Counted from the first letter of the stretch, positions 1-13,840 are shown. The stretch is DNA of 13,840 nt from a virus (IMGVR_UViG_2698536366_000004); one strand, 5' to 3'. Notes: a model not told the origin generated them from the letters alone. Numbers and translations: made by a program.

Positions 1-367
1 CCTCAAAAACACCATCATACACTAAATCAGTAAGTTGGCAGCATCACCAGCCTTCTTGAGGCTACCACCTGTTTTCAGGTGTCATTCAGACGTGATTTGC
101 CCCAGATTGGGAAAGCACGCTTTTTTCTCAGCTATCGTCCTCTTATTTTGCCGTTACATTTCTTTTTGCATTCTAATGATTAATTTACAATAATAATATC
201 GGTAATTATTGAGTAATAATAAATTAATTATTGCAAATGTAATTTAATTCCATCTTCGCGTTATATTCCAATCTTTAATCTCCGCATGGAACAAGTTGCA
301 TGCGTGACTATATTAAGACGACTTATAACCACCAAAACATTTGCTTTGCAAGCAAAAACAGTGACCA

Positions 368-396
368 TTGACTCTAAGAAAATTCCGATCTATTGT
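368..396 (+). promoter_or_regulatory. Candidate sigma70-like promoter (TTGACT - 17 nt - TATTGT) in the AT-rich island
   Basis: ttgact at 368-373, 17-nt spacer, tattgt at 391-396; it lies upstream of a small hydrophobic ORF and a plus-strand terminator. AT-rich DNA produces many chance promoter-like matches, so this is weak. Confidence 0.2.
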
Positions 397-430
397 TAGG
401 GTCATCAAAGTTACTTAACAGTATTCCGAA

Positions 431-532
431 ATGAAAATACAAAGCAAGCTAATTGTCTTATTAAACATTATTATTGCATTTATATTATTTGAGCTTTTAG
501 CTCAAAAATTTGGTTTGAGTACATTATTTTAA
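431..532 (+). CDS. Hypothetical 33-aa hydrophobic peptide (MKIQSKLIVLLNIIIAFILFELLAQKFGLSTLF)
   Basis: ATG at 431, TAA at 530-532. Basic N-terminus followed by a ~20-residue hydrophobic stretch resembles a single-pass membrane peptide. No convincing Shine-Dalgarno upstream and it is below the ORF-track length cutoff. Confidence 0.2.
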   Translation: MKIQSKLIVLLNIIIAFILFELLAQKFGLSTLF

Positions 533-681
533 AGCAAGATAAACAATATCGGGCACTCTAGTTTTTATAATTAACAATTAAACGTCCATAAAATGTTATT
601 TACTTTTCTTCGCTATTGTCATATCTTAATATAGTGGCTTACGCCACTCTACTTTCATCACATTTTGTACGTTTATGTACT

Positions 682-714
682 CGCCATGAAGCTCTTTCAT
701 GGCGATTTTTTATT
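682..714 (+). terminator. Rho-independent terminator, plus-strand orientation
   Basis: Perfect 9-bp stem cgccatgaa (682-690) / ttcatggcg (696-704) with 5-nt loop, followed by attttttatt (705-714). No comparable T-run on the minus strand, so it would end a plus-strand transcript arriving from the AT-rich island. Confidence 0.55.
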
Positions 715-797
715 CTTAATCCAAGAACATACTCCCTACCTATAGCAAAATCACTTTTTTAACAAAAGAATAACGTATTTAGGTAATCATTACGAAT

Positions 798-1379
798 TTA
801 CCCTATAGGTGCTACTGGCCATTCAATATCCGGTGCAGTTGATGTATCAACACGGTTCAGCAACACCCGATACTTTTTCCAAGCTTCCAGCAACAAGGTT
901 TCTTTCTCCGTTGCGATCTCCAGATCCACAGCATCCTGAAGCGGCGCTATATGCTCACTGGCTACCTGCATCAGGCTGTTTTTTGTTTCTTCCGCCTCCC
1001 GGATCCGGAACAGTTTTTCTGCTTCCGTATCCTTCACCCAGGCTGTGCCGTTCCACTTCTGAAACTCCCCTTCCGGGGATAACCAGGTGACATTTTCCGG
1101 TAATGAGCCGAGTTCAGAAATAAATAACGCGTCGCCGGAAGCCACGTCATAAACCGTTTTACCCCGATGATCTTCAACGAGATGCCACGATGACTCATCA
1201 CTGTTGAAAACAGCCACGAAACCAGCCGGAATATCTGGCGGTGCAATATCGGTACTGTTTGCAGGCAGACCTGTATGAGGCGGAATATATGCGTCACCTT
1301 CACCAATAAATTCATTAGTTCCGGCCAGCAGGTTATAAATTTTTATGGTCCGTGCTTGTTCACTCATTCTGAATGCCAT
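798..1379 (-). CDS. tfa: Tail fibre assembly protein Tfa (193 aa)
   Basis: ORF starts [44 protein letters not shown], near-identical over its length to phage lambda Tfa as I recall it. Its ATG overlaps the stf stop (TAATG), and it is in the canonical position after stf. Confidence 0.92.
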
Positions 1380-4300
1380 TATGCGAGCCTCACAATATAG
1401 TTAAATGCGATGTTTTTGACGGTGTTTTCCGCGTTACCAGCAGCGTTAACGGTGATGGTGTGTCCATGTGAACCAATCGCAACAGAGTGCGTATGAGCAC
1501 CAATACCGACAGTATGCGCGTGTGCACCCGCAGATGCTGCTGTGCCGGACAGTGAGTGTGTATGGTTTCCTTCTGAAGATGATTTACCTACCCATTGGGA
1601 GGTGCCACTGGTTAATGAGCCACTGATACCAACCTGATTAGTCCCGCTAACTTGAGTACTCCCTGCCGGAAACATTCCAGTAGGTTGACTCCCGCTATTC
1701 GTTCTGGGCCCAGTCTGACTATGTTGGTGGGCCCCAGCTGAACTTGTAGAGCCGCTCAGACTGTGCGTATGCGCCCCGGTGTTATTCGTGGATTTAGTGC
1801 CGTAATCAAACGACGATGTGGTTTTCGTCCCCAAATCCGTACTGGATGCGCTGGCGCTGTGGGTGTGCGATTTAATGCCATCCTGTTCCTGAGACAATAC
1901 GGCACGACCACTGGCGGGCTTGCCCTTAATCGTCCAGCCACGCATATCAGGGATCACGCCTGACGGATAAGCGGCTGCAAGTTTCGGGTAAGCAGATTTG
2001 TCAAAAGTCTGCCCCTGCATCAGGGCATAACCAGACGGAACGGTATCTGATGGCCACGGGATTGGTGCACCGACTGGATAAAACTCTGCAGGAGGATGAG
2101 CCGAGGTGTAAAGCTGCGCCCACGGCGACCAGTTTGCGTCGGTCGTATCCCGTCGTGAACGAATAAATGCCGGAGCATGAGCACCGCTTGTACCACTCCA
2201 GCCGATGAGTAACTCACCTTCGCCAACGGCTGTCATCCCTTTCAGGTGAATGATATTTCCATACGCTGTTGGATATCCGTTGTTATACACCTCGTATAAC
2301 TCAAGACCTGCTGCCCCCTGCGTATTGTCTGTCAGCGCGGCTACCCGACCTTTTGAAGCCAGATTAACTGATGATACTGCTGTTCCACCTGACGGTAGCG
2401 CCCCGATCTCTGATGCCGTTGGCTTATTTCTGGAGTTATAGTCCCTTCGCCAGCCAGGTGAATAATCTGTTCCGTGATTAATATAGGTAAACTGGGCGTT
2501 GGTTGTTCCGCCACCGCTGGATGTGGTCGGAGTGGTAATGCGGATCGTCATCGCTGACTTTATCCCCATTACTTCAATGACAGCTCCGGCGAGATGAATA
2601 TTACCGCAGCCAGTATCAGTAATGATTTTATTATTGCCATAAGACCAGGAACCCTTGCACATCCAGTATGGATGGTTAAATGCTCCCTGAGAATCCAGCC
2701 ACTCGATAAACTGTGCAGTCGTCCAGTTTCCTGTTGTTGTGCTTACTGACCCACCGAAGGCACGGCAGGCACCAATATTTTTCGTAAAGGTGTCTTTGCC
2801 AGGGATATCCGCACCGTTCTGATCTTTCTGCAGACGTTTCTCAGCATTGTCATTGGCTGCTTTTACTGCCTTTGGCGTTGCCGCCAGCGTTTCAGACGTG
2901 CTGTTGGTCGCGCTGCTTAGCTGGATTATCCCTTTCTGTGCTGTCGTTGCATCCTGTGCGGTGTATTTCCCGTTAGCCAGGTCATACGCGGCCTTAACGG
3001 CTTTTGGTGTTGCCGCCAGTGACTCGGAAGTGCTGTTAGTCGCACTACTGAGCTGTACTATCCCCTTTTTCGTCGTGCTCGCATCCTCAAGCGCCACGGC
3101 GGATGCAATATCCTCTGCCCGTTTTGCCGCTGTCTCAGCGCGCGTTGCTGCAGATTCCGCCGTACTTTTGCTCTGAGCTGCTGCCGTCGCACTACCAGCA
3201 GCCTCTGTCGCCTTCGTGGATGCCGTCGTGGCGCTGCCCTTCGCTGCTGACGCCTGTCTGGTCGCCTCATCTTTTGAAGCAGACGCCGATGATGCCGATG
3301 ACGCCGCCGAACTGGCGGACGATGCGGCAGCCGTTTTTGAGGATTCTGCACGGGTTTCCGACGCTTTCGCGTTCGTTTCGGATGTCTTCGCTGCGGAAGC
3401 TGACCTCGCTGCTGCCGTGGCCTGCTCAGTGGCTTCGCCAGCCTTCGTTGTGGCTGTTGAAGCGGATGATGCGGCGCTTTCTGCCGATTTTCCGGCGGCG
3501 GTGGCACTGGCTGAGGCCTGCCCGGCACTTGTTGACGCGGCGCTGGCAGACGACGCAGCCGCTGTTTTTGAGCCTGCCGCAGCTGAGGCACTCTGTCCCG
3601 CTGCCGTTTCAGAAGACCTGGCGTTCGTCTCGGACGTTTTGGCCGCCTTCGCAGAATTTGCAGCCGCCGTCGCCGAGGAAGCTGCGCTACTGGCGCTTGA
3701 TGATGCGTTCGTTTCTGATGATTTTGCCGCCTCTTTTGAAGCCGACGCATCCCGGGCTGAGGTGGCAGCTTCTGACGCTTTCGTGGTCGCGGTGGATGCA
3801 GAAGTGGCTGCTGATTGTTGTGACGCTGCCGCATTCGTTTCTAACGTTTTCGCCGCACCGGCACTGGTAGCCGCCGCGCTTTTTGAGGACTCTGCAGCGG
3901 CAGCACTTTTTGAGGCTTCAGTGGCCTTTGTTGATGCCGTTCCTGCGCTGGAAGACGCTGACTGAGCCGACGAAGCGGCCTGTCCGGCTGACGTGCTGGC
4001 TGCACGTGCTGAATCTGCAGCATCAGTCGCATGGGTTGCCGCCTCACGGGCTGATGTGCTGGCATCGCTGGCTGATTTCTTCGCGGCTGCCGTGTTCTGT
4101 GCCACCGCGGACGCGTTACGCGCCACCTCTTCCACCATCAGCTCAAAACGGCGCAGTGCCTCCGGACGGGCATCATCCTCCGTCATGGCACCGAGAAAAT
4201 CATTCAGCGTACCGGGTCGGGAATCTTCATACACGGTGATGGTCCCGGCATGTGACGGCGGGAATCCTTCCACCAACAGAATAACGCTGTACTGACCGTA

Positions 4301-4462
4301 CTCAACGTCCATGCTGTAACGCCCGGCTTCATCCGGATTTTCTGAGGCCAGCGTGTTCACCACCACCGTGGTGCTGTTACGTTTTGCTTTCAGCTGGATT
4401 GTGCAGTTCTGTACCGGTTTTCCTGTGCCGTCTTTCAGTACACCTGAAATCTTTACTGCCAT
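1379..4462 (-). CDS. stf: Side tail fibre protein Stf (about 1027 aa from the ATG at 4460-4462; the track's GTG at 4466-4468 adds 2 codons)
   Basis: N-terminus [26 protein letters not shown] matches lambda Stf. Long Ala/Ser/Thr-rich low-complexity shaft, duplicated [26 protein letters not shown] tail-fibre motif, and His-rich GAHxHS C-terminal repeats ending [11 protein letters not shown] as in lambda Stf. GGGGTGA Shine-Dalgarno-like sequence upstream of the ATG. Confidence 0.9.
2857..3070 (-). repeat. Two ~80-bp direct repeats inside stf encoding the duplicated tail-fibre motif
   Basis: Segments ~2857-2938 and ~2988-3070 are highly similar at DNA level and encode [28 protein letters not shown] and [28 protein letters not shown]. 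Confidence 0.6.
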
Positions 4463-4473
4463 ATTCACCCCAC

Positions 4474-4500
4474 AAAAAAGCCCGCCTGAACCGGCGGGCT
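4474..4500 (-). terminator. Rho-independent terminator after lom copy 1, immediately upstream of the stf ribosome-binding site
   Basis: Minus-strand reading gives an 8-bp GC-rich stem (agcccgcc 4479-4486 / ggcgggct 4493-4500), 6-nt loop, then TTTTTT (A-run 4474-4479 on plus strand). Confidence 0.6.
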
Positions 4501-4560
4501 GTCATAACACTGTGTTACCTGGCTAATCAGAATTTATAACCGACACCCACGATGAAACCG

Positions 4561-5043
4561 TCAGTGCGCCAGAGACGTGTTGCTGTGGCGACCGTCATCA
4601 CTTCCGGTCAGCACATCGTGCGTTTTCCCCTTATTGTCAGTTACGCGGATATAATCCCCGGAAAAAGTCGACACACGGCTGTAAGCCACACCCGCCATCG
4701 CATACGCGCTGAACCATTCATTCACGCGCACAGACGGCCCCGCCATCACGCTGAACCAGCGGTTACGCACGGAATCTTCATGCCAGCGGGTATCGCTGTA
4801 ACGGGTCAGCTGGCGATTCTTGTCTCCTGCATAGCTGAATGACGTCACCAGCCCCAGCGTATCCGTAAACTCATAACGGTATTTCACGTTAATCCCGTTC
4901 AGATCATCACTGCCGGGAACGTTGGTCCGGGCATGAAGATACCCCGCGCTCAGCGTGGACTGATGTTCAGACGCCCATGCAGGCGCACCGGATACGGCCA
5001 GACAGATGGCTGCGGACAAAATGGCTGCACAAACTTTACGCAT
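4561..5043 (-). pseudogene. lom copy 1: Lom/Ail/PagC-family outer membrane protein gene disrupted by an 83-bp internal deletion (frameshift, 160-aa product)
   Basis: Signal peptide and first ~150 residues match lambda Lom. Compared with intact copy 2, the 83 nt between two cgccag hexamers (copy-2 coordinates 7940-8022) are missing, so the frame shifts and the product ends ...NTSLAH. The original GVGYKF-stop codons are still present out of frame at about 4527-4547. Confidence 0.75.
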
Positions 5044-5063
5044 AATTACCTCTCGCTTTTCTG

Positions 5064-5091
5064 CAATAAAAAAGGCGTCATTCCTGACGCC
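5064..5091 (-). terminator. Rho-independent terminator between the J1 fragment and lom copy 1
   Basis: Stem ggcgtca (5074-5080) / tgacgcc (5085-5091) with 4-nt loop; the minus-strand hairpin is followed by TTTTTTATT. A GAGAGG Shine-Dalgarno for lom follows. Confidence 0.55.
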
Positions 5092-5113
5092 ATTTATTGG
5101 GGTTATAAATATT

Positions 5114-7417
5114 TCAACGAATACTGATGCCGGAAGCCGCTTTTTTGGTCACAATCACCGTACAGTCGGTGATATTGCCTGCCCCCTGATTGCCTTTCTG
5201 GAAAATCTTAAACTCCAGAGTGACGCTACCACCACCACTAGGCATATCAATAACTGCACTGTAACTACCGGGAATGGCACCTTTAGTTTCTCTGGATGCG
5301 ATTAATACGCCGTTTTTGCGAACTTCAAAACCATAACCCGTGTATCGCGTGCCTCCTGGGTTATTTCCGCTCCCCGGATCGTCATACGCTATACCGTTAA
5401 AAATAATGGGCGGAATAATAATCTGGCGGTCAAAGTTATGATCATCGCTTATGGTGACTGTAACCGTCCCGTTTGGTGTTTCCGTGTTACCCCACGTACC
5501 AGCCTGTTTCGGAAATGATTTGGATACAGCTTTAACGAAGTCACCTCTGACCTGAGTCGCCTCCAGCATGCCCTTAATCGTACAGTTTTCATTTACCGTG
5601 ACATTGTTGAGCGTCCCGGCGTTCGCATTCACACTGCCACTGATATCCGCATTTTTAGCGGTCAGCTTTCCGTCCGGAGTCAGGGAAAATGCCGATGGAT
5701 TTCCACCGCTGGTAATGGTGGGGGCCGTCAGGCGTTTCAGGAACACGTCGTTCATGAATATCTGATCGCCCTGACCAACAAACATCGGTTTTGTGTTGCC
5801 ATTCGCAGGATTAACCATCGCAATCCTGTCCGCCGCCAGCAGCACCTGACTCTGCATGCCGTCAGGGGTGTTCTCAATACCGGCACCAATACCCGCGATA
5901 TAAAGGCGTCCGTCCTGCATCTGCTGCAGCTTCACAGCCCACATGCTGTTCAGGTTATTATTTGTATCAACCTGAACCTTCTGTATCTGCTGAATTGCCG
6001 CACTCTGGTCTTCCAGTTTCTTATTGACGGTCTGCGTGATTTCATTGCTGACATCCGTAATGGACGTCCTGATTTCAGCCAGGTCAGGCGCAAGCTGACC
6101 GTTATCAATCTGCGTCCACAGCTCCTGAGCCAGATGGGTTTTCCCTATCTCGCCTTTGAAAAAATCCAGATAACCGGATGCATCATCACTCGGCTGACCA
6201 ACAGCCTCCACGAATGCCGATTTGCCAACGGTGTTCACACTGCGGATATAAAAGTAATAATCATGGCCCGGTTTGATATTGATACTGGCGGCTATCCAGT
6301 ACAGCGCCGTGCCAAGATAGCGTGCTGTGGTTTCAACCTGCCTGATATCCGCAATCCGCTTTTCCGAGAACCAGAACTCAAACTGTACCGTCGGATCATA
6401 AACCGCAAGATGCGGCGTGGCGGTTATCTGAAAATAGCCCGGCGTCAGCTCAATCCGCGACAGCGCTGCCGGTGCGGCAATCCGGAACGATACCGACGCC
6501 GGATCGCCCTGCTGCCCCCACGCATTTACTGCCCGGACTGTCAGCCTGTAGTTCCCCAGCGCCAGTTGTGTGAAGCGGTAAGTGGTTTCCGTCGTCCGGG
6601 CCGTGCTGACCAGCCGCTCACTGCCGTCATCCGCTGTTACGGTCAGACGGAGCAGGAAGCTCACGCCCTTCACCACCTTCGGCGTGTCCCAGCGCGCCAG
6701 CACCTGATATTCCCCGCTGTCTGCGGTGACTTCGGCAGTCAGGTGCTGCACCGCTGGCGGCGTGACACCATTCACCGTGCCGCTCTGGTCGCCGTCAAAG
6801 TGCGCCCCGTTATCCACGATGGCTTCTTTTTCCGGCACATGCTGCACGGCGGTGATGGCATACGTGCCGTCGTCGTTCTCACGGATACTCACGCAGCGGA
6901 ACAATCGCTGGTGCAGCGTCGGCAGCTTCAGCCCCCACACGCTGTATTCAGCAACACCGTCAGGAACACGGCTCACTTTTACCTTCACGCCGTCGGTGAC
7001 GGACTGGACCTCCACGCTGACCGGATTCCCCTGCCCGTCAACCAGGCTTATCAGCGTGGTGCCGGAGGATGGCAGCGTGATTTCACGGTCGAGCGTCAGC
7101 GTCCGGGTCTGGCTGTTCACCGCCAGCACGCGCCCGCCGGTGCGGATACCGGCATAGTCATCATCGCAGATTTCAATGACATCGCCCGGTACATGACGAA
7201 GCCCTTCAGCACCCACGCTGAAATCCACGGTCTGCGTCTCCAGCAGTTCCGTTTTAATCAGCCACAGCCCGGCAGTCTTTCTGGCTGGCGGTTCAGGGTA
7301 TTTGAGGTAGCGTCTGACCGTCCGTTCAGAGCAACCAATCTGAGTCGCAATATCGACGATGTACGCGCCCTGCTGGCGCATTTGCTTTATCATGTAAAAG
7401 TCCTCTCTGCTCAGCAT
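5114..7417 (-). CDS. Chimeric ORF (767 aa): 48-aa helix-turn-helix N-terminus of an IS21-family IstA-like transposase fused in frame to the C-terminal ~719 aa of host specificity protein J, with receptor-binding C-terminus variant A
   Basis: N-terminus [48 protein letters not shown] has a classic HTH and matches my memory of the IS21 IstA start. From [14 protein letters not shown] onward it is collinear with J; DNA homology to full J ends at 7273/7274. It has its own ATG (7415-7417) preceded by AGGA at 7-nt spacing. The last ~150 aa are unrelated to the C-terminus of copies 2 and 3. Confidence 0.7.
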
Positions 7418-7518
7418 GTTGATGTCCTTTCTGGTGTGAGAACCTTAAGGAAACAACATGTTGGGTGGAGCGGACAATCCAAATGGCGAATTACCGTCTT
7501 ATATCACTGGCGCTGACA
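7274..7518 (-). mobile_element. IS remnant (left end plus first 48 codons of an IS21-family istA-like transposase gene)
   Basis: J homology stops abruptly at 7273/7274 and is replaced by sequence encoding a transposase-like HTH N-terminus. The minus-strand sequence begins TGTCAGCGCCAGTGATATAAGACGG near 7518, a plausible IS terminus (TG...). The left boundary is approximate and the rest of the element is absent. Confidence 0.5.
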
Positions 7519-7830
7519 CTTCATCACCTCCGGACGTAAATCACCATCCTTTGGTGCATTCAGAAACGCGTTCAGTGTCCCCGGTGCATCAGTCGGTGCC
7601 ACATCAATATCCCCGACACGGGTTGGCTGCCAGCCGTTACAGTGAAGCGCAACCTCGTAATACCCCGGCTCAGCCTCAATCACATAAGCACCGTTATTGT
7701 CCGTCACGCAAGTGGCAACAACGTGTGCCACAACGGTCGGACTGGTTCTTCTGGCCCGCAGTTCAATCGCACAATTTACGACAGGTTTACCCGCCCCATC
7801 TTTCAGTACACCTGAAATCTTTACTGCCAT
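7504..7830 (-). pseudogene. Truncated second side-tail-fibre gene: Stf-like N-terminal domain only (108 aa), interrupted by the IS remnant
   Basis: Starts [28 protein letters not shown], the same start motif as Stf, in the same context (lom terminator then GGGGTGA Shine-Dalgarno then ATG at 7828-7830). It diverges from Stf after ...GDLRPEV and ends in IS-derived codons MKCQRQ-stop. The track ORF 7504..7872 is an upstream GTG extension. Confidence 0.65.
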
Positions 7831-7841
7831 ATTCACCCCAC

Positions 7842-7867
7842 AAAAAGCCCGCCTGAACCAGCGGGCA
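7842..7867 (-). terminator. Rho-independent terminator after lom copy 2
   Basis: Stem gcccgc (7848-7853) / gcgggc (7862-7867); minus-strand hairpin followed by TTTTT (A-run 7843-7847). Paralogous to the 4474-4500 terminator. Confidence 0.55.
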
Positions 7868-7893
7868 GTCATAACACTGTGTTACCTGGCTAA

Positions 7894-8493
7894 TCAGAAC
7901 TTATAACCGACACCCACGATGAAACCGTCAGTGCGCCAGTCACCACTGCCGGAACCTTCATAAGCAAGGTCAATGGCCACGGATTCGGTCGGGTTAAACT
8001 GCACGCCAGCCCCCCACGCCAGAGACGTGTTGCTGTGGCGACCGCCATCACTTCCGGTCAGCACATCGTGCGTTTTCCCCTTGTTGTCAGTTACGCGGAG
8101 ATAATCCCCGGAGAAGGTCGACACACGGCTGTAAGCCACGCCCGCCATCGCATACGCGCTGAACCATTCATTCACGCGCACAGACGGCCCCGCCATCACG
8201 CTGAACCAGCGGTTACGCACGGAATCCTCATGCCAGCGGGTATCGCTGTAATGCGTTTTTTGCTCATCTTCAGCGTTGGCATAACTGAATGACGTAATCA
8301 GCCCCAGCGTGTCCGTAAACTCATAACGGTATTTCACGTTAATGCCCTTCAGGTCATCGCTGCCTGGCATATCAGTATGGGTCTGAAGATACCCGGCGCT
8401 CAGCGTGGACTGATGTTCAGACGCCCATGCAGGCGCACCGGATACGGCCAGACAGATGGCTGCGGACAAAATGGCTGCACAAACTTTACGCAT
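7894..8493 (-). CDS. lom: Lom outer membrane protein, intact (199 aa; Lom/Ail/PagC/OmpX family)
   Basis: Signal peptide MRKVCAAILSAAICLAVSGAPAWA followed by a mature beta-barrel sequence ending GFIVGVGYKF, collinear with lambda Lom. GAGAGG Shine-Dalgarno 7 nt upstream of the ATG. Confidence 0.9.
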   Translation of the reverse strand: MRKVCAAILSAAICLAVSGAPAWASEHQSTLSAGYLQTHTDMPGSDDLKGINVKYRYEFTDTLGLITSFSYANAEDEQKTHYSDTRWHEDSVRNRWFSVMAGPSVRVNEWFSAYAMAGVAYSRVSTFSGDYLRVTDNKGKTHDVLTGSDGGRHSNTSLAWGAGVQFNPTESVAIDLAYEGSGSGDWRTDGFIVGVGYKF

Positions 8494-8513
8494 AATTACC
8501 TCTCGCTTTTCTG

Positions 8514-8541
8514 CAATAAAAAAGGCACCATTTCTGGTGCC
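8514..8541 (-). terminator. Rho-independent terminator between the J2 fragment and lom copy 2
   Basis: Stem ggcacca (8524-8530) / tggtgcc (8535-8541); minus-strand hairpin followed by TTTTTTATT. The stem differs from the 5064-5091 paralogue by compensatory changes that keep pairing. Confidence 0.55.
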
Positions 8542-8560
8542 CGTATCTGGGTTATAAAAT

Positions 8561-10455
8561 TCAGCTAATCGTGATGCCTGCAGTGGCTTTCTTCATCACC
8601 ACAACCAGCAAATCGCTGATACTTGCTGTGGGATACCAGCCATTTACCAGCCATGCCGATACAGAAAACTCCAGCGTCATGTGACCGTGACCGGCAGGCA
8701 TATCAATAACACCCGTATATATCAGCGTATTATCCAGGGTCGTTCGGTTATAAATTTCAGCACCGTTTTTCTTCACTATCAGGCGGCATGACGAATAAAT
8801 ATTGTTATTCTTCCGCTCATGTTTAGCACCGCGAAACGCCACCGCGGGAATAACAATTTGCCGATCAAACGGCTGATCGTCATAAACCCTGACGGTAATG
8901 GTCCCTGATGGCCACCTCTCCGGTGCCCGGGAGTCCCGTGGGAAAGGTTTGCCCACTGTTTTAACGAGATCGCCTTCAATCTGGTTCGCGGACAATTTTC
9001 CCAGAACCCGACAGTTCTTATTAATCGTGACGTTGTTGAGCGTCCCGGAGTTCGCGTTCACGTTACCGCTGATATCGGCATTTTTCGCCGTCAGCCGTCC
9101 GCCAGGTGTCAGGGAAAATGCCGGAGGATTACCGCCGCTGGTAATGGTCGGAGCCGTCAGGCATTTCAGGAACACGTCGTTCATGAATATCTGATCGCCC
9201 TGACCAACAAACATCGGCTTTGTGTTGCCATTCGCAGGATTAATCATCGCAATCCTGTCTGCCGCCAGCAGCACCTGACTCTGCATTCCTGCTGGCGTAT
9301 TCTCAATACCGGCACCGATACCCGCAATATAAAGGCGTCCGTCCTTCATCTGTTGCAGCTTCACAGCCCACATGCTGTTCAGGTTATTATTTGTATCAAC
9401 CTGAACTTTCTGTATCTGCTGGATTGCAGCACTCTGATTTTCCAGTTTTTTATTGACGGTTTGCGTGATTTCATTGCTGACATTCGTAATGGACGTCCTG
9501 ATTTCAGTCAGGTCCGGCGCAAGCTGACCGTTATCAATCTGCGTCCACAACTCCTTGCCGAGATGCGTTTTATTGATCAACCCTTTATAAAAATTCAGAT
9601 AACCTTCTGCATCATCGCTCGCCCGACCGATGGCCTCCACAAATGCCGATTTGCCAACGGTGTTCACACTGCGAACGTAAAAATAATAATCATGGCCCGG
9701 CCTGATATTGATACTGGCGGCTATCCAGTACAGCGCCGTGCCAAGATAGCGGGCGCTGGTTTCAACCTGCCTGATATCCGCAATCCGCTTTTCCGAAAAC
9801 CAGAACTCAAACTGCACCGTCGGGTCATATACAGCCAGTTTCGGGACCGCCGTTATCTGAAAATACCCCGGTATCAGTTCAATAGTGACAGGCGCTGCCG
9901 GTGCCGCAATCCGGAACGATACCGACGCCGGATCGCCCTGCTGCCCCCACGCATTTACTGCCCGGACTGTCAGCCTGTAGTTCCCCAGCGCCAGTTGTGT
10001 GAAGCGGTAAGTGGTTTCCGTCGTCCGGGCCGTGCTGACCAGCCGCTCACTGCCGTCATCCGCTGTTACGGTCAGACGGAGCAGGAAGCTCACGCCCTTC
10101 ACCACCTTCGGCGTGTCCCAGCGCGCCAGCACCTGATATTCCCCGCTGTCTGCGGTGACTTCGGCGGTCAGATGCTGCACCGCTGGCGGCGTGACACCAT
10201 TCACCGTGCCGCTCTGGTCGCCGTCAAAGTGCGCCCCGTTATCCACGATGGCTTCTTTTTCCGGCACATGCTGCACGGCGGTGATGGCATACGTGCCGTC
10301 GTCGTTCTCACGGATACTCACGCAGCGGAACAGACGCTGGCGCAGCGTCGGCAGCTTCAGCCCCCACACGCTGTATTCTGCAACGCCGTCAGGAACACGG
10401 CTCACTTTTACCTTCACGCCGTCGGTGACGGACTGGACCTCCACGCTGACCGGAA
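8561..10455 (-). pseudogene. 5'-truncated host specificity protein J fragment (J2; C-terminal ~626 codons, receptor-binding variant B), no native start
   Basis: Collinear with the C-terminal 626 aa of full J. It begins mid-gene at VEVQSVTDG directly at the junction with truncated lom copy 3 (10455/10456). The track's start is a GTG with no evident Shine-Dalgarno. Confidence 0.75.
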
Positions 10456-10896
10456 TCCGGTCAGCACATCGTGCGTTTTCCCCTTGTTGTCAGTTACGCG
10501 GAGATAATCCCCGGAGAAGGTCGACACACGGCTGTAAGCCACGCCCGCCATCGCATACGCGCTGAACCATTCATTCACGCGCACAGACGGCCCCGCCATC
10601 ACGCTGAACCAGCGGTTACGCACGGAATCCTCATGCCAGCGGGTATCGCTGTAATGCGTTTTTTGCTCATCTTCAGCGTTGGCATAACTGAATGACGTAA
10701 TCAGCCCCAGCGTGTCCGTAAACTCATAACGGTATTTCACGTTAATGCCCTTCAGGTCATCGCTGCCTGGCATATCAGTATGGGTCTGAAGATACCCGGC
10801 GCTCAGCGTGGACTGATGTTCAGACGCCCATGCAGGCGCACCGGATACGGCCAGACAGATGGCTGCGGACAAAATGGCTGCACAAACTTTACGCAT
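10414..10896 (-). pseudogene. lom copy 3, 3'-truncated: first ~147 codons of lom joined at 10455/10456 to J-derived sequence, reading through 13 out-of-frame codons
   Basis: Identical to lom copy 2 from the start codon through ...DVLTG, then [13 protein letters not shown]-stop encoded by J-derived DNA. Lacks the C-terminal beta-strands. Confidence 0.75.
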
Positions 10897-10916
10897 AATT
10901 ACCTCTCGCTTTTCTG

Positions 10917-10944
10917 CAATAAAAAAGGCACCATTTCTGGTGCC
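10917..10944 (-). terminator. Rho-independent terminator between full J and lom copy 3
   Basis: Same hairpin as 8514-8541 (ggcacca / tggtgcc) followed by a T-run on the minus strand. Confidence 0.55.
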
Positions 10945-10963
10945 CGTATCTGGGTTATAAAAT

Positions 10964-13840
10964 TCAGCTAATCGTGATGCCTGCAGTGGCTTTCTTCATC
11001 ACCACAACCAGCAAATCGCTGATACTTGCTGTGGGATACCAGCCATTTACCAGCCATGCCGATACAGAAAACTCCAGCGTCATGTGACCGTGACCGGCAG
11101 GCATATCAATAACACCCGTATATATCAGCGTATTATCCAGGGTCGTTCGGTTATAAATTTCAGCACCGTTTTTCTTCACTATCAGGCGGCATGACGAATA
11201 AATATTGTTATTCTTCCGCTCATGTTTAGCACCGCGAAACGCCACCGCGGGAATAACAATTTGCCGATCAAACGGCTGATCGTCATAAACCCTGACGGTA
11301 ATGGTCCCTGATGGCCACCTCTCCGGTGCCCGGGAGTCCCGTGGGAAAGGTTTGCCCACTGTTTTAACGAGATCGCCTTCAATCTGGTTCGCGGACAATT
11401 TTCCCAGAACCCGACAGTTCTTATTAATCGTGACGTTGTTGAGCGTCCCGGAGTTCGCGTTCACGTTACCGCTGATATCGGCATTTTTCGCCGTCAGCCG
11501 TCCGCCAGGTGTCAGGGAAAATGCCGGAGGATTACCGCCGCTGGTAATGGTCGGAGCCGTCAGGCATTTCAGGAACACGTCGTTCATGAATATCTGATCG
11601 CCCTGACCAACAAACATCGGCTTTGTGTTGCCATTCGCAGGATTAATCATCGCAATCCTGTCTGCCGCCAGCAGCACCTGACTCTGCATTCCTGCTGGCG
11701 TATTCTCAATACCGGCACCGATACCCGCAATATAAAGGCGTCCGTCCTTCATCTGTTGCAGCTTCACAGCCCACATGCTGTTCAGGTTATTATTTGTATC
11801 AACCTGAACTTTCTGTATCTGCTGGATTGCAGCACTCTGATTTTCCAGTTTTTTATTGACGGTTTGCGTGATTTCATTGCTGACATTCGTAATGGACGTC
11901 CTGATTTCAGTCAGGTCCGGCGCAAGCTGACCGTTATCAATCTGCGTCCACAACTCCTTGCCGAGATGCGTTTTATTGATCAACCCTTTATAAAAATTCA
12001 GATAACCTTCTGCATCATCGCTCGCCCGACCGATGGCCTCCACAAATGCCGATTTGCCAACGGTGTTCACACTGCGAACGTAAAAATAATAATCATGGCC
12101 CGGCCTGATATTGATACTGGCGGCTATCCAGTACAGCGCCGTGCCAAGATAGCGGGCGCTGGTTTCAACCTGCCTGATATCCGCAATCCGCTTTTCCGAA
12201 AACCAGAACTCAAACTGCACCGTCGGGTCATATACAGCCAGTTTCGGGACCGCCGTTATCTGAAAATACCCCGGTATCAGTTCAATAGTGACAGGCGCTG
12301 CCGGTGCCGCAATCCGGAACGATACCGACGCCGGATCGCCCTGCTGCCCCCGGGCATTTACCGCCCGGACTGTCAGACTGTAATTCCCCAGCGCCAGCTG
12401 CCTGAAGCGGTATGTGGTTTCCGTCGTCCTGGCTGTGCTGACCAGCCGCTCACTGCCGTCGTCCGCTGCCACGGTCAGGCGAAGCAGGAAGCTCACACCC
12501 TTCACCACCTTCGGCGTGTCCCATCGCGCCAGCACCTGATATTCCCCGCTGTCTGCGGTGACTTCGGCGGTCAGATGCTGCACCGCTGGCGGCGTGACAC
12601 CATTCACCGTGCCGCGCCGGTCACCGTCAAAGTGTGCCCCGTTATCCACGATGGCCTCTTTTTCCGGCACATGCTGCACGGCGGTGATGGCATACGTGCC
12701 GTCGTCGTTCTCACGGATACTCACGCAGCGGAACAATCGCTGGTGCAGCGTCGGCAGCTTCAGCCCCCACACGCTGTATTCTGCAACGCCGTCAGGAACC
12801 CGGCTCACTTTCACCTTCACGCCGTCGGTGACGGACTGGACCTCCACGCTGACCGGATTGCCACTTCCGTCAACCAGGCTTATCAGCGTGGTACCGGAGG
12901 ACGGCAGCGTGATTTCACGGTCGAGCGTCAGCGTCCGGGTCTGGCTGTTCACCGCCAGTACGCGACCACCGGTGCTGATACCGGCATAATCATCATCGCA
13001 GATTTCAATGACATCACCCGGTACATGGCGAAGCCCTTCTGCGCCCACGCTGAAGTCCACGGTCTGCGTTTCCAGCAGTTCCGTTTTAATCAGCCACAGC
13101 CCGGCTCGGTGTGCCTGCCCCCGGCTGGTACAGCCAAAGGCATCCATCTTCGTGACATTACGACCGTAACGGGCAATGGCCTGCGTATCCTCCACAAGCT
13201 CTGTCGCCGTCTCCCAGCCGTTATCTGGGTCAATCCAGTTCACCTCAACGGCATTATGGCGGTCCTTCAGGGCGCTGAAGCTGTAGCGGAACGGCGCGCC
13301 ATCGTCCGGCATCACCACATTACTGCGGTTATAGGTCCACACCTTATCCGACGGTCGGTCCTGCACGAACGTCAGCATCTGTCCGTTCCATACCGGCATA
13401 CAGCGCATCGCCGAGCAGAAATCACTGAGAACATCCCACGCCTTACGCTGTGTGGTCAGGTAAGAGTTACAGGTGATGCGCGGCTCCGTGCCGCCAAATC
13501 CGTCCGTCACTGACTGGTCGCAGTACTGGCCGATGACATACAGCGCCCATTTGTCCACATCTGCCGCACCAAGACGTTTCCCCATGCCGTAGCGCGGATG
13601 AGTGAGCATGTCCCACAGACACCAGGCCATGTTGTTGCTGTATGCTGGCTTAAGCGTTCCGTCCCAGATACCGCTGTATTGCCGCGTCTGCGGGTTATAG
13701 TTCGACGGCACCTGCAGAATGCGCCCGCGAAGATGATAATTGCGACTCACCTGCTGGTTACCGAACTGCTCTGAATCCACCTGCACGCCGACCAGCGCCG
13801 TGTTCGGGTAGCACTGTTTCACATCGATGATTTCGGTGTA
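10964..13840 (-). CDS. J: Host specificity protein J (tail tip / central tail fibre), 5'-partial (C-terminal ~958 codons in window), receptor-binding variant B
   Basis: Collinear with lambda J from ...[22 protein letters not shown] through the fibronectin-like repeats; the frame stays open to the window edge. The last ~150 aa differ from lambda's LamB-binding C-terminus. The track's start at 13822 is an internal GTG; the gene continues upstream beyond the window. Confidence 0.92.

Follow-up and report, generated by a model that had tools for sequence, protein, structure and literature searches.

The mosaic contig described here, a stretch of 13,840 nucleotides that we call the window, is probably a short-read assembly chimera of two ordinary prophages and not proof of gene exchange; we put the probability of this at about 0.6. 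The observations behind this reading are a mosaic copy of the tail gene J, a contig and junctions that are unique, a canonical layout in finished genomes, and deviations that are confined to the alleles of paralogs. For the sequence as written, the J2 copy is a recombinant of J1 and J3 in the formal sense. The chimeric contig would string together the tail regions of two separate lambdoid prophages of a Shigella sonnei-type genome, prophage A contributing J3-lom-stf′-IS21′ and prophage B contributing J1-lom(pseudo)-stf-tfa. J2 would then have no independent genomic copy. Its 3′ 1.9 kb would be the single J3 and lom of prophage A written twice, and its 5′ 0.5 kb would result from a walk hopping between J1 and J3 branches at shared runs of 37–79 identical bases. 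The joins would have been made by an assembler, a scaffolder or a gap closer, rather than in the cell.

The contig and its gene order

An exact-protein look-up identified the window as the entire contig CXDO01000151.1 (13,840 bp) of the draft assembly GCA_001248255.1. The gene strand is the minus strand throughout, and the order of genes is J3, lom′, J2, lom2, stf′, the end of an IS21 element, J1, lom1, stf, tfa and the end of an IS1 element. J3 (10964–13840, minus strand), a tail-tip or host-specificity gene J, extends from J nt 604 to the stop codon and runs off the end of the contig. Its open reading frame contains the Pfam families Phage-tail_3, Ig_J, Phage_Tail_Tip and Ig_GpJ_C, and precomputed Pfam assignments place this domain set on the three J products; E. 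coli records name the matching genes gpJ or phage tail tip protein. J3 is followed by lom′ (10456–10896, minus strand), the first 441 nt of a gene for an Ail/Lom outer-membrane protein, cut at what we term junction A. It is identical to lom2 over 8053–8493, and an open reading frame at 10414–10896 crosses the junction from lom′ into out-of-frame J.

J2 lies beyond junction A on the minus strand. It comprises a J1-like mosaic 5′ segment (9949–10454, J nt 1587–2092) and a 3′ part (8561–9948) that matches J3 at 10964–12351 with no mismatches. Downstream is lom2 (7894–8493, minus strand), a complete Ail/Lom gene of 199 aa with the Pfam family Ail_Lom, which occupies the matching position in prophage A of complete genomes. 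The next gene, stf′ (7504–7872, minus strand), encodes a side tail fibre cut down to its N-terminal 122 aa (Pfam phage_tail_N) and has directly after it a fragment of an IS21-family element (7275–7528, minus strand). This takes in the end of the element and codons 1–48 of istA, and is 98.4% identical to an annotated E. coli IS21 istA. The exact stf′ protein is found in 543 indexed blocks of the collection, and the order J-lom-stf′-IS21′ recurs in all ten complete-genome places listed.

The remainder of the window matches prophage B. J1′ (5114–7273, minus strand) runs from J nt 1339 to the stop codon; in complete genomes J1 is full-length (1,165 aa), with the tail genes M, L, K and I upstream. 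Next comes lom1 (4475–5043, minus strand), an Ail/Lom pseudogene with an internal deletion of 83 bp by alignment of the lom copies; its 160-aa product is annotated identically in complete genomes. The side tail fibre gene stf (1379–4462, minus strand; 1,027 aa as called) is in place in prophage B of the complete genomes. The tail fibre assembly gene tfa (798–1379, minus strand; 193 aa, Pfam Caudo_TAP) has its exact protein in 3,535 indexed blocks of the collection. The last 48 positions (1–48) match the first 48 nt of the terminal sequence of IS1. They are colinear with three of the retrieved loci (L012, L014 and L017), in which IS1 runs on, and a contig that stops 48 nt into IS1 has a typical repeat-bounded end.

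The order J-lom-stf-tfa is that of the window, and the complete genomes add M-L-K-I upstream. The preliminary description had called the repeated units cassettes; they are fragments of ordinary J-lom-stf tail modules, and there is no dedicated system. Two of the three are truncated and non-functional.

Two prophage loci in complete genomes

Reference loci for prophage A (the J3 side) and prophage B (the J1 side) were retrieved from complete genomes, among them CP019689, which is S. sonnei 75/02. Prophage A reads M-L-K-I-J(1,159 aa)-lom-stf′-IS21′, followed by other IS elements, and is decayed. It was found in ten complete chromosomes of about 4.8 Mb, with one J in each, no duplication and no J2. 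Prophage B reads M-L-K-I-J(1,165 aa)-lom(pseudo)-stf-tfa-IS1, with one full-length J1-lom-stf-tfa in six complete chromosomes. Both loci were located in GCA_040189005.1 and GCA_040188945.1, where about 680 kb separates them and their orientation is the same; the potential donor and recipient paralogs of a gene conversion are therefore co-resident in these genomes.

The window follows these loci very closely. Positions 10456–13840 (3,385 bp) differ from prophage A at three positions, 12736, 12737 and 12744. J3 and the one J of prophage A are thus 99.9% identical, and at all three sites J3 carries the J1 allele. Positions 7275–10454 differ from prophage A at 25 positions, all within the mosaic part. 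Positions 1–7273 match prophage B at 99.9% or better in six complete genomes, and against one of these loci (L012) there are exactly two mismatches in 7,273 bp. These are at 5002 and 5005, both in lom1, and both are lom2 alleles. Every deviation of the window from the reference copies is accordingly an allele of the other paralog. Read against the finished loci, the window can be described as A (J nt 604 to lom nt 441), A again (J nt 1587 to IS21 nt ~240) and then B (J nt 1339 to IS1). Compared with the finished genomes, each join leads backwards, one by 2.4 kb and the other by about 680 kb.

The contig is a draft whose layout is contradicted by the finished genomes of its lineage that were retrieved, and its deviations are confined to paralog alleles and swaps of them. 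The exchange of alleles between J2 and J3, together with the lom2 alleles in lom1, is what the mixing of paralogs in assembly produces.

The layout could instead be real, a reading that we hold to be possible rather than probable. In a single recombination-dependent event of repair or replication, the J gene of prophage B would have received a copy of sequence from prophage A. Break-induced or synthesis-dependent copying, with repeated template switching between the homeologous J1 and J3, would give the patchy mosaic; a jump from lom nt 441 back to the base of a 10-bp inverted repeat at J nt 1587 would give the first join, and an illegitimate join of IS21′ to J1 nt 1339 the second. The presence of both donor and recipient paralogs in genomes of this lineage speaks for such an event, as does the high significance of the breakpoint described below. 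Against it, the arrangement is private to one draft assembly, though hundreds to thousands of indexed blocks of the collection contain the flanking genes. Were the structure real, the preliminary description would be right that the J copies exchange sequence.

J2 is a mosaic of J1 and J3

Self-BLAST and a site-by-site comparison reveal two head-to-tail units of 2,403 bp, at 8053–10455 and 10456–12858, with one novel joint at 10455/10456, as in a tandem duplication. Over 8053–9948 the J2 unit shows no mismatch with the J3 unit in 1,896 bp, which bears out the earlier statement that J2 is identical to J3 below a switch. All 28 differences between J2 and J3 sit in 9949–10454 (5.5%). J2 differs from J1 at only seven sites in 9906–10454 (offset –3429), namely 10166, 10172, 10333, 10334, 10341, 10379 and 10385. 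The claim that J2 follows J1 almost base for base in this part therefore holds, with 7 differences from J1 against 28 from J3, but the match is imperfect and patchy, with J3 alleles interspersed. The peptide variants that had been cited, DQSGT, FTQLA and NAWGQQ as against DRRGT, FRQLA and NARGQQ, are both present in the translations.

A three-way MAFFT alignment of J1, J2 and J3, of the kind the preliminary description had proposed as a check, yields 341 informative sites. To the left of the breakpoint J2 shares the J1 state at 0 of 312, and to its right at 25 of 29. The maximum chi-square, 290, places the breakpoint between 9905 and 9949; in 10,000 permutations no value as high occurred (P < 1 × 10−4). 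The switch had been placed at about 9905–9950, and the interval found here, 9906–9948, is a run of 43 nt identical in J1, J2 and J3. The informative sites are clustered and the breakpoint is significant, as expected for gene conversion. The differences are concentrated at the 5′ end, where J2 is nearer to J1. A plain tandem duplication is ruled out for the sequence as written, as had been argued, since the J2/J3 differences are clustered and the 5′ end is J1-like.

Within the J1-like part of J2 there is in turn a patchwork of five blocks, J1, J3, J1, J3, J1. They are J1 at 10409 and 10397, J3 from 10385 to 10333, J1 from 10253 to 10213, J3 at 10172 and 10166, and J1 from 10121 to 9949. At each of the seven sites that differ from J1, J2 carries the reference J3 allele. 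With the reference J3 used for comparison, the 32 variable sites of 9949–10454 show no allele that is peculiar to J2, the junction base 10455 apart. There is moreover a reciprocal swap of three sites between the two copies: J3 has J1 alleles at 12736, 12737 and 12744, and J2 has the reference J3 alleles there. J1 and J3 share 91% identity across the 1.7 kb aligned at the 3′ end, and resemble each other more closely further towards the 5′ end.

The patchwork bears on how the layout could have arisen in a cell. About seven homologous switches would be needed within 550 bp, in two copies, together with two illegitimate joins and a patch in lom1 2.3 kb away, and no simple biological process would produce the reciprocal swap between J2 and J3. 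Very-short-patch repair by Dcm/Vsr was considered for the two-site patches and rejected: there are no CCWGG sites in 9900–10460, leaving no Dcm/VSP sites to explain the short patches. A single complex repair with many switches would be coherent but rare, and it leaves the swap, the lom1 patch and the coincidences of boundaries described below unaccounted for. That the contig is correct and records one recent repair with at least seven template switches, leading from the decayed prophage into the J gene of a second prophage ~680 kb away, seems to us less likely than not. On the other side, parts of the pattern occur in nature. The exact 56-mer across the breakpoint is present in 4 viral contigs and the 45-mer across the switch 10385|10397 in 22; natural J genes with matching local combinations of alleles show that recombination at these sites takes place within the J gene pool.

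The same pool might have supplied the 5′ part of J2 ready-made, as a third J allele from another prophage or from contaminating DNA that resembles J1 by chance. The lambdoid J genes form a large and shuffled pool, and, besides the breakpoint 56-mer in viral contigs, the exact 113-mer of 10342–10454 is present in 3 complete E. coli genomes. We nevertheless consider this origin very improbable, given that at 32 of 32 variable sites J2 has the J1 or the reference J3 allele of this one lineage, and none that is private. The whole segment has no exact match among the complete E. coli genomes. Over 549 bp, natural sequences match it at 98.9% at best in E. coli and 97.6% in viral contigs (retrieved by two haplotype k-mers), and these carry private differences. 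A third allele with the three-site block ‘unswapped’ was also tried and rejected; it lowers the match to natural alleles.

The preliminary description had taken the mosaic as direct evidence that the cassettes exchange sequence. What stands of this is the formal recombinant of J1 and J3. The rest presumes that the contig is faithful to the genome, which is doubtful because the window is a whole draft contig, J3 and J1 lie in separate prophages in the complete genomes retrieved, the junctions are unmatched in the other sequences searched, J2 and J3 have swapped alleles, and lom1 contains lom2 alleles.

The junctions

Junction A lies at 10455/10456 and reads GCTGACCGGA-A-TCCGGTCAGC on the plus strand. 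In the orientation of the genes, lom ...GTGCTGACCGGA is followed by T and then by TCCGGTCAGCGTGG... of J; both lom and J have A at this point. The single base at 10455 is thus an orphan, A on the plus strand where J1, J3 and lom all have T. The junction is flanked flush by an inverted repeat of 10 nt, with the arms GCTGACCGGA and TCCGGTCAGC. There are five inverted 10-mers between lom and J, so that the presence of one is ordinary, but a join that lands exactly on one is not; for a random join the coincidence has a probability of roughly 3 × 10−6. A near direct repeat of 4 nt, GGAA (J1-type), is also present, and microhomology would fit save for the base at 10455.

Junction B lies at 7273/7275. 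In gene orientation IS21 ...CCAGAAAGAC is followed by T and then by GCCGGGCTGTGG... of J1, where both IS21 and the reference J1 have C. Its orphan base, 7274 (T on the gene strand; A in J3), corresponds to J nt 1338, a site that is polymorphic between J1 and J3. There is no inverted or direct match comparable to that of junction A, only arms of 6 nt. The IS21 fragment is colinear with the complete genomes only up to 7275, and no repeat that would explain this stop was detected in the reference loci. Each junction therefore has one orphan base that is unlike either parent, at a point where both parents agree.

The J sides of the joins have a further property in common. Homology to J starts at J nt 1339 at junction B, at 1585–1587 at junction A and at 604 at the contig end (13840), and J nt 1339, 1585 and 604 are the first bases of runs of 35, 47 and 44 nt, respectively, that are identical in J1 and J3, with junction A falling within 2 nt. 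Starts of such runs make up ~1% of positions, and by a post hoc estimate the double coincidence has a chance of about 1 × 10−3. The J-side joins look like graph or contig boundaries, and such coordinates are expected of a chimera. On the lom and IS21 sides of the joins there is no such repeat or boundary of identity. For a real lom|J or IS21|J join a boundary of J1/J3 identity would be irrelevant, and this coincidence (about 1 × 10−3 jointly, again post hoc) counts against recombination in the isolate, as does the orphan base at each junction. In its favour, the end points of junction A lie exactly at the base of an inverted repeat with the near-GGAA direct repeat beside it, which is the geometry of the end points of illegitimate recombination.

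For an assembly error the inverted repeat, flush with the junction, is awkward, as no verified software mechanism accounts for it. A direct overlap of at least 10 nt, ligation at a CCGG restriction site, fold-back priming and an IS21 pseudo-end were each considered as sources of junction A, and on reasoning from the sequences none yields what is observed. Under either reading the 10-nt inverted repeat fits none of the joining rules considered.

Neither junction was found elsewhere in the sequences searched. A megablast search with 10300–10620 against 5,426 complete E. coli genomes gave no match across junction A, and the exact 35-mer of this junction has no match in the GTDB species representatives. 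Junction B is absent from the same 5,426 genomes in a megablast search with 7150–7620, and its exact 36-mer has no match in IMG/VR. By exact-protein look-up the lom′-J fusion protein has no record, and the J2 open reading frame and a 767-aa IstA-J1 fusion are recorded on CXDO01000151.1 alone. Among the sequences searched, no other genome or contig carries the junctions or the fusion reading frames, and no recurrence of the recombinant copy in independent genomes was found.

The k-mer composition of the window

At k up to 37, all k-mers of the window are present in the two reference loci except around 7274, 10385|10397 and 10455. The k-mers that link alleles across 9906–9948 become new only at k of at least 45. 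All but one of the switch points of the mosaic lie in runs of 37–79 nt that are identical in J1 and J3; the exception is 10385|10397, where the two sites are 12 nt apart and the interval is 11 nt. The 48-nt IS1 end of the contig and a collapsed two-site variant in lom suggest that k was about 49–57. At k = 49–55 four more joints are new, and a fifth becomes so from about k = 59.

These results weigh partly against a chimera. Both junctions and the 10385|10397 switch require k-mers that have no source in the reference loci, and a pure de Bruijn assembler would therefore need reads at these three places. At k of about 49–57, joints spaced 38–45 nt apart also need the support of reads. A piece of the contig ends, furthermore, within IS21, where no repeat is detectable. 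For recombination in the isolate the same k-mers are a positive argument, since reads carrying the two junctions and the switch probably existed. A simple loop in an assembly graph is, in addition, normally traversed in the manner seen here, so that a real tandem duplication would assemble likewise.

Relationship to known rearrangements

Systems of programmed variation, such as the Gin, Cin and Pin inversions, shufflons, diversity-generating retroelements and silent cassettes, resemble the window superficially, in that partial copies of a receptor-binding gene are adjacent. In contrast to those systems, the partial copies here are J-lom-stf debris, interrupted by IS21 and by an internal deletion. 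All open reading frames of the window of at least 120 aa are J, lom, stf, tfa, the istA fragment or overlapping out-of-frame sequence, and none is an invertase or reverse transcriptase gene. No inverted repeat of at least 40 nt was found in the window, and there are no inverted crossover sites. A programmed cassette system was rejected, as there is neither a recombinase or reverse transcriptase gene nor repeat sites.

Mis-joined short-read contigs offer a closer likeness. They share with the window a draft contig bounded by repeats, a layout absent from finished genomes, copies written twice perfectly, alleles of paralogs that are mixed or swapped, and switch points in stretches that the paralogs share. 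The window differs from them in joins that lack shared sequence, the orphan bases, the flush 10-nt inverted repeat and the 11-nt switch interval, and these features of the joins would need reads or a step of scaffolding or gap closing. If the contig is an artefact, it serves as a warning: where short-read draft contigs show prophage tail genes in several copies, the layout can pass for gene conversion very convincingly, and comparison with finished genomes and with the reads should precede any biological conclusion.

Lambdoid prophages that share a host genome undergo homologous recombination and gene conversion, which give rise to mosaic J, stf and other tail genes in E. coli and Shigella. 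In known cases one allele is replaced by another inside intact genes. The window is similar in that two related J genes are found in one genome and a sharp breakpoint lies in a shared stretch, and many natural J alleles show these polymorphic sites in reshuffled combinations. It is unlike those cases in that a 5′-truncated fragment is fused to half of lom, and in a pattern that is unusually patchy and partly reciprocal. If real, the structure would be one more case of well-known recombination of lambdoid prophage tail genes, an event of an ordinary type. It would be a well-resolved patchy homeologous exchange, coupled to illegitimate joins and a duplication, with no new system.

If the contig is correct, a bacterial MMBIR-like complex rearrangement would have been caught in a natural isolate of Shigella sonnei type. 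The units of 2,403 bp in head-to-tail arrangement, a joint with at most 1–4 nt of microhomology and nearby template switches are all features of illegitimate or MMBIR-like tandem duplication. The window departs from such duplications in that its copies differ at one 0.5-kb end, and in that 3 kb downstream the sequence is joined backwards once more, to a locus about 680 kb distant.

The novel junctions

The joint between lom and J (the Ail/Lom gene and the tail-tip gene of the prophage) is formed by a 21-nt near-perfect palindrome at positions 10445-10465 of the window, of sequence GCTGACCGGA-A-TCCGGTCAGC. It comprises two 10-nt arms, of which one is derived from J and the other from lom, and the limits of the duplicated unit are exactly the arms of this palindrome. 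None of the biological or software mechanisms that we tried reproduces the palindromic joint.

The second novel junction joins the IS21-family element to J1, one of the three J copies. The end of the IS21-family element (7275-7528) directly follows a 122-codon N-terminal fragment of the side tail fibre gene stf. In complete genomes this IS21 copy is broken ~200 bp further on by an element of the IS3 family, a pattern of nested IS decay that Shigella typically shows. Each of the two novel junctions contains exactly one base, at 10455 (lom to J) and 7274 (IS21 to J1), that matches neither parent. The parents carry the same base as each other at both of these positions, and both orphan bases are A on the + strand.

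Allele patterns of the J and lom copies

Comparison with the reference copies reveals a reciprocal swap of alleles at three sites between J3 (12736, 12737 and 12744) and the mosaic middle copy J2 (10333, 10334 and 10341). The swap alters a single residue, which is H in J3 of the window and R in J2 and, as judged from the alleles common to both, also R in the reference J3. The same polymorphic sites of the J segment occur in many differing combinations across unrelated prophage contigs (L019-L044, from IMG/VR); J genes in nature are thus subject to extensive reshuffling at precisely these positions.

Within 1-7273 the window differs from the copy in L012, the reference carrying prophage B, only at positions 5002 and 5005 of lom1, where the alleles are those of lom2. 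This two-site variant forms a bubble between identical runs of 71 and 56 nt, and thus it is probably a collapsed bubble. At 4572-4603, lom1 has an internal deletion of 83 bp relative to lom2, giving a truncated product of 160 aa, and the same pseudogene is called in complete genomes of the lineage.

The contig end and the tail fibre region

Positions 1-48 belong to the terminal repeat of an IS1 element. The contig stops 48 nt into this repeat, and this provides a hint that the assembly k-mer was ~49-55. The adjoining region downstream of the tail fibre assembly gene tfa (49-797) is poor in G+C (33-38%). It contains no ORF of at least 80 aa, and several complete genomes have no called gene there. 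The middle of stf (~2800-4000) encodes a long low-complexity region rich in Ala, Ser and Thr. Its internal repeats are imperfect, as in the pair 2849-2935 and 2981-3067, which are 77% identical, and in the other reading frames the region gives rise to several spurious ORFs of considerable length.
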